Source of the DNA: Escherichia coli
GTDB taxonomy: Bacteria; Pseudomonadota; Gammaproteobacteria; Enterobacterales; Enterobacteriaceae
Direction: 5' to 3' (one strand)
DNA: 64,000 nt
Assembly (NCBI RefSeq): GCF_045037415.1
Contig: NZ_CP173438.1
The notes below the pieces were generated by a model that did no database searches, was not told the DNA's origin, and saw only the letters and a list, made by a program, of their open reading frames with translations. A program made the translations under genes and the position numbers. Positions 57,062 to 57,312 of the stretch are shown here, piece after piece. Numbering within the stretch: the first letter of the stretch is position 1; each line of letters starts with the position of its first letter.

Positions 57062-57312
57062 GGTTCTCTCCCTAAAAATCTGTCTGGAAGGGTAGCGATT
57101 TGTGCGCATTGTCACGATTGAGATTTTTTAAGGAGAGAATAGATTGATAATTTGTAGTTATGTGAAATTGCTATTTTCTGTAGTAAGAATGCATTTTTCT
57201 GATTTTGTGATAAGTAAAATGCATTAGAAAAAGTATGGAGTAAATAAATATGAGGACGAAACTATATGCGTAGCGCCGCTGTAATTAACAACGGCCTACG
57301 GAGATATGTCGC

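Follow-up and report, generated by a model that had tools for sequence, protein, structure and literature searches.

The yicC–yicG interval of Escherichia coli raises the question of whether the LexA-regulated gene dinD was lost from some strains or gained by others. A first-pass annotation of a 64,000-nucleotide stretch of E. coli DNA (contig NZ_CP173438.1; here, the window) observed that dinD, which it placed between yicC and yicG in K-12, was missing, and suggested that dinD either is an acquisition of the K-12 lineage or was cleanly deleted here. From comparisons of this locus across complete genomes, we consider it quite probable that the window holds an unoccupied, ancestral-type yicC–yicG junction and that the dinD carried elsewhere in E. 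coli is a satellite-derived insert. The absence of dinD from the window is one state of an ordinary presence/absence polymorphism, located at a known integration hotspot.

Organization of the yicC–yicG spacer

We took gene limits from the annotated strain 439, whose sequence over the stretch is 100% identical. The locus comprises ligB (54759-56447, plus strand), yicG (56444-57061, minus strand), and yicC (57313-58176, minus strand), and further window genes at this locus are rph and pyrE. The yicG product (205 amino acids [aa]; trimeric intracellular cation channel family/UPF0126 according to the open reading frame [ORF] list and the annotations of strains 439 and EC958) is identical to WP_000924289.1 in the annotation of strain 439 and is invariant across all E. 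coli loci examined. The yicC product (287 aa; YicC/YloC family endoribonuclease in strains 439 and EC958) matches TIGR00255 over its full length (E = 9e-138). As a separate observation, YicG scored 123 bits against the NCBIfam equivalog PRK10578, for which the cutoff is 326 bits, in a full-length match; this low score is probably a scoring quirk for a membrane protein rather than biology.

The two genes are separated by a 251-bp spacer (57062-57312) with a G+C content of 35.5% (measured on 57065-57312), versus 48.6% for the whole window. No ORF of at least 30 aa is present in the spacer (the longest is 27 aa), an Rfam search of it returned no match, and it contains no LexA box of the form CTG-N10-CAG, the nearest matches lying at 57883 and 57966, within yicC. 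Neither a dinD ORF nor an upstream LexA box, the two marks of a K-12-type dinD locus, was found in the spacer. No remnant of dinD was detected in the spacer, and a tblastn search with K-12 DinD against L002, a locus identical to that of the window, found nothing. The absence of dinD noted in the first-pass annotation was thus borne out.

The yicG-proximal part of the spacer (57062-57235) is shared with dinD-carrying strains, aligning to the K-12 locus up to position 2292 of L001, and it includes a strongly diverged haplotype (57088-57233). Upstream of yicG, a conserved block of ~43 bp with invariant alignment columns (57092-57134, minus strand) contains CCTTAAAAAATCTCAATCGTGACAATGCGCACAAATCGCTACC in the minus-strand sense. 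This block is nearly invariant in Escherichia, Citrobacter, Superficieibacter, Enterobacter, Raoultella, and Trabulsiella in an alignment where the remaining spacer is variable; it had no Rfam hit and is probably a promoter/operator region or a 5' leader element of yicG.

Directly 3' of yicC lies a 77-bp segment of ancestral type (57236-57312, minus strand), which does not occur in dinD-carrying E. coli and is homologous to outgroup spacers; its left boundary is uncertain within 57236-57262 (up to ~25 bp further right). A hairpin, GUAGGCCGUUGU-UAAUU-ACAGCGGCGCUAC (57270-57299, minus strand), begins 14 nucleotides past the yicC stop codon, and RNA folding of the 85 nucleotides downstream of yicC gave -23.5 kcal/mol with a stable stem at these positions. 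Stems of differing sequence occur at the equivalent position in four Citrobacter species and two other Escherichia lineages. The window hairpin has no clear U-tract and a consensus terminator scan called no terminator, whereas the Citrobacter versions do carry a T-run. We presume that it represents the 3'-end or terminator stem of yicC.

Comparison with the K-12 dinD locus

In the K-12 MG1655-type chromosome (L001), the gene order is yicG, dinD, yicC, in agreement with the position given in the first-pass annotation, and yicC and yicG are 1,334 bp apart. The K-12 dinD gene is 825 bp long (L001 2408-3232) and encodes a 274-aa Bro-N domain protein. It is preceded, at a distance of 58 bp, by a LexA box (CTGTATATAAATACAG in the dinD sense), and a LexA box is also found in Nissle; dinD has been listed as a LexA-regulated gene with a known SOS box (PMC6590174).

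Alignment of the interval with those of K-12 and other E. coli genomes, the check proposed with the initial observation, located the difference. The window and K-12 align from yicG to 57235 (L001 2292), and the alignment resumes at the yicC stop codon (57313; L001 3453); between these ends the window has 77 bp and K-12 has ~1,160 bp (L001 2293-3452). The flanking genes and their orientation are alike at the two loci (dinD being designated dinD/pcsA in K-12), and the yicG-proximal 174 bp of the spacer are homologous. In contrast, the window lacks dinD, the LexA box, and the K-12-type yicC terminator and has the 77-bp ancestral segment with its own hairpin. The 77-bp segment had no match in the K-12, Nissle, E2348/69, Rb-50, and Z1324 loci. 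Its derivation from the K-12 insert was considered and rejected, as local alignments on either strand scored no better than shuffled sequences.

Outgroup loci and the ancestral state

For the outgroup scan, YicC was used as the query on one genome per species, which yielded 80 loci. In 25 of the 80 species representatives, yicC and yicG lie 195 to 289 bp apart without dinD. These empty loci include two non-coli Escherichia lineages (L007 and L009, which are 91 to 92% identical to the window over 6.7 to 10.9 kb) and six Citrobacter species, as well as Superficieibacter, Enterobacter, Raoultella, Trabulsiella, Buttiauxella, and Pseudocitrobacter faecalis. A dinD homolog was found at only two loci, those of a Pseudocitrobacter metagenome-assembled genome (MAG) and Serratia silvae, in both cases directly after yicC. 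The 77 bp of the window align with the spacers of L007, L009, and Citrobacter, and the position of the hairpin is kept. Because the 77-bp segment and its hairpin align with outgroup spacers, and because 25 of 80 loci lack dinD, the sequence comparison identifies the empty arrangement as the ancestral type and dinD as a replacement insert of ~1.16 kb. Pseudocitrobacter has both alleles, with a terminator hairpin after yicC in the empty one and a cassette in its place, with similar boundaries, in the dinD one.

Frequency of the two alleles and strain background

Using a 141-bp probe across the window junction, we detected the empty allele in 709 of 5,426 complete E. coli genomes (13%; 708 at full length), and with the K-12 dinD gene as the query, dinD was detected in 4,714 (about 87%). 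The two sets together account for almost all of the 5,424 genomes that have the locus. Genomes with dinD include K-12 derivatives, ATCC 8739, O157:H7, O111, O104:H21, Nissle 1917, ATCC 25922, and E2348/69. In 826 further genomes, the distance between yicC and yicG was too great for the search to join them; the examples examined carry, besides dinD, a copy of ISKox3 or an 11.3-kb integrase element. The empty allele comprises at least three sequence subtypes (611 genomes at 99% identity or more, 70 at 95 to 99%, and 28 at 90 to 95%), which occur on differing flanking backgrounds, e.g., in pig strain 13P477T and strain VE-F5. A literature search for the distribution of dinD by phylogroup yielded nothing useful.

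In EC958 (O25b:H4-ST131), yicC and yicG are 251 bp apart, the spacer is 100% identical to that of the window, and the 20 kb around the locus are 99.985% identical. Judged by its sequence, the window belongs to clone ST131; among the 709 genomes with the empty allele, ST131 membership was checked for EC958 and the window only.

Several variations were observed alongside these counts. The dinD gene itself is a mosaic: 1,544 of the 4,714 genomes with dinD match at least 80% of the K-12 gene, and many of the others match only its 3' 579 nucleotides because the 5' ~250 nucleotides (the Bro-N region) represent a different allele. In some strains, an in-frame deletion of 222 bp leaves 200 aa, and others have just fragments annotated as "BRO family" and "DnaD" pseudogenes; the alleles compared (L001 2408-3232, L004 2409-3011, and L003 2409-2686) indicate decay in places. 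The records of Campylobacter phages A18a and A11a (MG065686.1 and MG065691.1) encode a protein 100% identical to K-12 DinD, which suggests that these assemblies contain E. coli DNA.

Elsewhere in the window, insertion sequences and island sequences at 1386-14147 gave a partial, noncolinear match to the afa/dra-bearing island of EC958, and the island content upstream of yicH–yicJ thus differs between the two strains. A gene for a "reverse transcriptase family protein" lies between pyrE and slmA in E2348/69 and N1718 (L005 22704-23663 and L006 22713-23672). It is absent from the corresponding spacer of the window (59728-59763), as it is from EC958, Nissle, and other strains examined, and it constitutes a second presence/absence polymorphism, 2.5 kb from that of dinD.

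Haplotypes and the history of the empty allele

The history of the two alleles within E. coli was read from haplotype comparisons. Over 171 bp of shared spacer, the dinD-carrying haplotypes of K-12, Nissle, E2348/69, and Rb-50 differ from one another by no more than 4%, from the window haplotype by 14 to 16%, and from the two non-coli Escherichia lineages by 17.5 to 18.7%; the distance of the empty haplotypes from those lineages is only about 11%. The divergence is concentrated beside the insertion, with 23 mismatches between the window and Nissle within 57088-57233 versus about 1% elsewhere. From this pattern we infer that dinD was imported with diverged flanks from a donor outside E. coli and was then spread by recombination.

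The window is 99 to 100% identical to the dinD-carrying B2 strain Nissle 1917 from about position 45 kb to 64 kb of the window (~19 kb) except for one patch, 57088-57406, which contains the indel. Given this diverged patch amid near-identity, a short recombination event separates the window and Nissle lineages. The B2 ancestor of ST131 may accordingly have carried dinD, with a short homologous recombination patch from a dinD-less E. coli restoring the empty, ancestral-type allele. The presence of dinD in other B2 strains (Nissle, ATCC 25922, and E2348/69) fits such a history. So does the spacer of 13P477T, which is identical to that of the window over 57065-57235 and has a single mismatch at 57250, next to a left flank that differs by ~3.5%; this combination means that the empty allele has moved between backgrounds. 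However, a Nissle lineage that received a dinD-carrying patch would give the same pattern, and we rate the restoration of the empty allele in ST131 at somewhat below an even chance. It agrees with our main explanation on the identity of the allele and differs only on the history of the lineage.

The second of the two original suggestions, that dinD was deleted cleanly here from a locus like that of K-12, would account for a missing gene between two intact neighbors. It does not account for the junction, where 77 bp (57236-57312) foreign to dinD-carrying chromosomes align with the spacers of non-coli Escherichia and Citrobacter and where the adjoining ~150 bp are of a different haplotype. Since the 77 bp are absent from dinD-carrying chromosomes, a deletion within such a chromosome could not yield the window junction, and we regard this scenario as very improbable. 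The other suggestion, an acquisition by the K-12 lineage, had the direction right, in that dinD is derived relative to the outgroups and was inserted, but not the scope: with dinD in 4,714 complete genomes of many lineages, O157:H7, O111, Nissle, and E2348/69 among them, a recent acquisition by K-12 specifically deserves practically no credence. A collapse of the locus by an assembly or sequencing artifact is equally negligible, as the same allele was recovered in 709 independent complete genomes, including that of EC958.

The yicC 3' end as an integration site

The yicC gene is an integration site of phage-inducible chromosomal islands (PICIs) (bioRxiv 10.1101/2022.07.18.500453), and its 3' end is that of mobilizable genomic islands (MGIs) of Vibrio (PMC5704250). 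Our comparisons likewise place an integration hotspot at the yicC 3' end. A homologous integrase or part of one (36 to 81% identical) was found ~200 bp beyond yicC in 15 of the 80 representatives, including those of E. albertii, Klebsiella spallanzanii, and members of Kosakonia, Serratia, Pantoea, Pectobacterium, and Yersinia. In E. albertii, homology to the window ends at 57323 and an integrase follows; in E. coli CH4794 and 30224_1#48, elements occupy the empty allele and the homology breaks off at window positions 57321-57324. Integrase-bearing elements are present at this point in E2348/69, E. albertii, CH4794, 30224_1#48, Salmonella, Yersinia, and Pectobacterium, and those of Salmonella and Yersinia are flanked by repeats of the yicC 3' end.

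The 11.3-kb element of E2348/69 lies exactly at the yicC stop codon, between yicC and a K-12-type dinD cassette, and encodes, from integrase to primase, a tyrosine integrase, an Icd-like protein, and a D5-type primase. It excludes dinD, and its attL lies upstream of the K-12-type spacer. A search for clean att direct repeats around this element gave only a degenerate pseudo-yicC end and, within the element itself, a repeat of 19 bp, so that no exact att core could be defined at E2348/69.

In the window, the yicC 3' end is intact and colinear with non-coli Escherichia and Citrobacter through the junction, as in insertion-free species. We infer that the last eight codons of yicC (57313-57336, minus strand) are the attB core region of yicC-targeting tyrosine-integrase elements of the PICI/MGI type, unoccupied here. 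The similarity to the PICI and MGI systems lies in the target, namely, the last yicC codons, and in the related tyrosine integrases ~200 bp after yicC in E2348/69, E. albertii, Salmonella, Pectobacterium, and others. The difference is that the site is empty in the window, with nothing integrated, and the ST131 sequence would be an attB by analogy. For satellites and islands that target yicC, the spacer may thus be a landing site that is ready and unoccupied.

dinD as cargo of mobile elements

The gene order around dinD in other genera provided clues to its origin. One Salmonella enterica genome carries, in succession, rph, yicC, int, alpA, Bro-N, ash, DUF927 primase, DUF4224, dinD, an attL that is a degenerate repeat of the final ~24 bp of yicC, and the native spacer. 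The Yersinia locus ends similarly (primase, further genes, dinD, attL, yicG), and its element is likewise flanked by an imperfect copy of the final ~24 bp of yicC; in Pectobacterium the order is yicC, int, dinD, AbiEii. In satellites of Streptococcus, a dinD gene 52 to 55% identical adjoins the integrase. DinD proteins are 74 to 84% identical across Enterobacterales, Aeromonas, Pseudomonas, and a Chlorobiaceae MAG, and identity at this level across distant taxa is a pattern typical of a mobile gene. On the basis of these gene orders, dinD is a terminal cargo gene of yicC-integrated elements in other genera.

The E. coli gene resembles these copies in that the Streptococcus "Javan" satellites (52 to 55% identity) and the yicC elements of Salmonella (76%) and Yersinia (81%) encode full-length DinD homologs, with dinD at an end of an integrase-bearing element. 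It differs in that it stands alone, with no integrase or primase, and has a LexA box, which the Salmonella, Pectobacterium, Serratia, and Pseudocitrobacter copies lack. Past the dinD stop codon, K-12 has a hairpin, GGTGCAGTGAACACAATGGCTAAATATTGCACC, and, 20 bp after the stop codon, a segment resembling the yicC 3' region, TGTTGATTGAGACACCCGATGCGTAA. The alignment score of this segment was 33, compared with 21.2 ± 4.0 for shuffled sequences, and 19 of 1,000 shuffles reached 33 (P of about 0.02); it is a possible attL relic of marginal significance. A search for integrase remnants beside K-12 dinD found none. In Citrobacter freundii, a dinD homolog lies between ibpB and yidE, at an unrelated locus where mobile-element genes are lacking in the vicinity, which implies that dinD moves in other ways too.

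Taken with the gene orders in other genera, these data make a relic of an integrase-bearing, yicC-targeting element the most likely identity of E. coli dinD. We propose the following scheme. The window junction runs from the yicC end through the conserved hairpin to the yicG upstream region, and dinD would never have been within this allele. In K-12 and most other E. coli strains, ~77 bp beside yicC have been replaced by a cassette of ~1.16 kb that provides yicC with a new terminator and contains dinD together with its LexA-controlled promoter and its own terminator. The cassette would most likely be what remains of a phage-satellite-like element with an integrase that inserted at the yicC 3' end, dinD having been its last gene, by the distal att. 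The dinD-carrying haplotype would have had a single origin, and homologous recombination would have carried it across the species, with the empty haplotype persisting in a minority (13% of complete genomes) that includes ST131.

Several observations count against the satellite-relic step, namely, the marginal attL relic, the lack of an integrase fragment, the C. freundii copy elsewhere, and the exclusion of dinD from the E2348/69 element. In addition, simple site-specific integration would be expected to leave the native 77 bp on the yicG side of attL, which is the case in Salmonella and CH4794; in dinD-carrying E. coli they are not recognizable, so that one has to assume either a further deletion or a donor whose spacer was different. 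On balance, we lean slightly toward the view that dinD is not a native repair gene but the stranded terminal cargo of a PICI-like satellite, which entered once with foreign flanks and spread by recombination, leaving ST131 and a few other lineages with a virgin site.

The direct consequences of the polymorphism are small: dinD is an accessory rather than a core SOS gene, and because ST131 lacks it, K-12-based lists of the SOS regulon do not fully transfer to this pandemic clone. For dinD, an SOS gene of poorly understood function, an origin as phage-satellite cargo is plausible. If dinD did arrive in this way, the function of DinD would lie in satellite–helper-phage or antiphage biology, and clones that lack dinD, ST131 among them, would provide natural knockouts for testing it.

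A frameshift in rph

The neighboring rph gene of the window (58303-59020) has a one-base insertion at 58855, GCAGAGA[A]CCGAC, that shifts the frame after residue 184 and gives a product of 198 aa rather than 238 aa. The gene is intact in EC958, Nissle, and the other genomes compared. An identical 111-bp rph stretch was found in at least 30 complete genomes from several laboratories, and the frameshift therefore looks like a real mutation of a sublineage within ST131. By analogy with rph-1 of K-12, it might lower pyrE expression.
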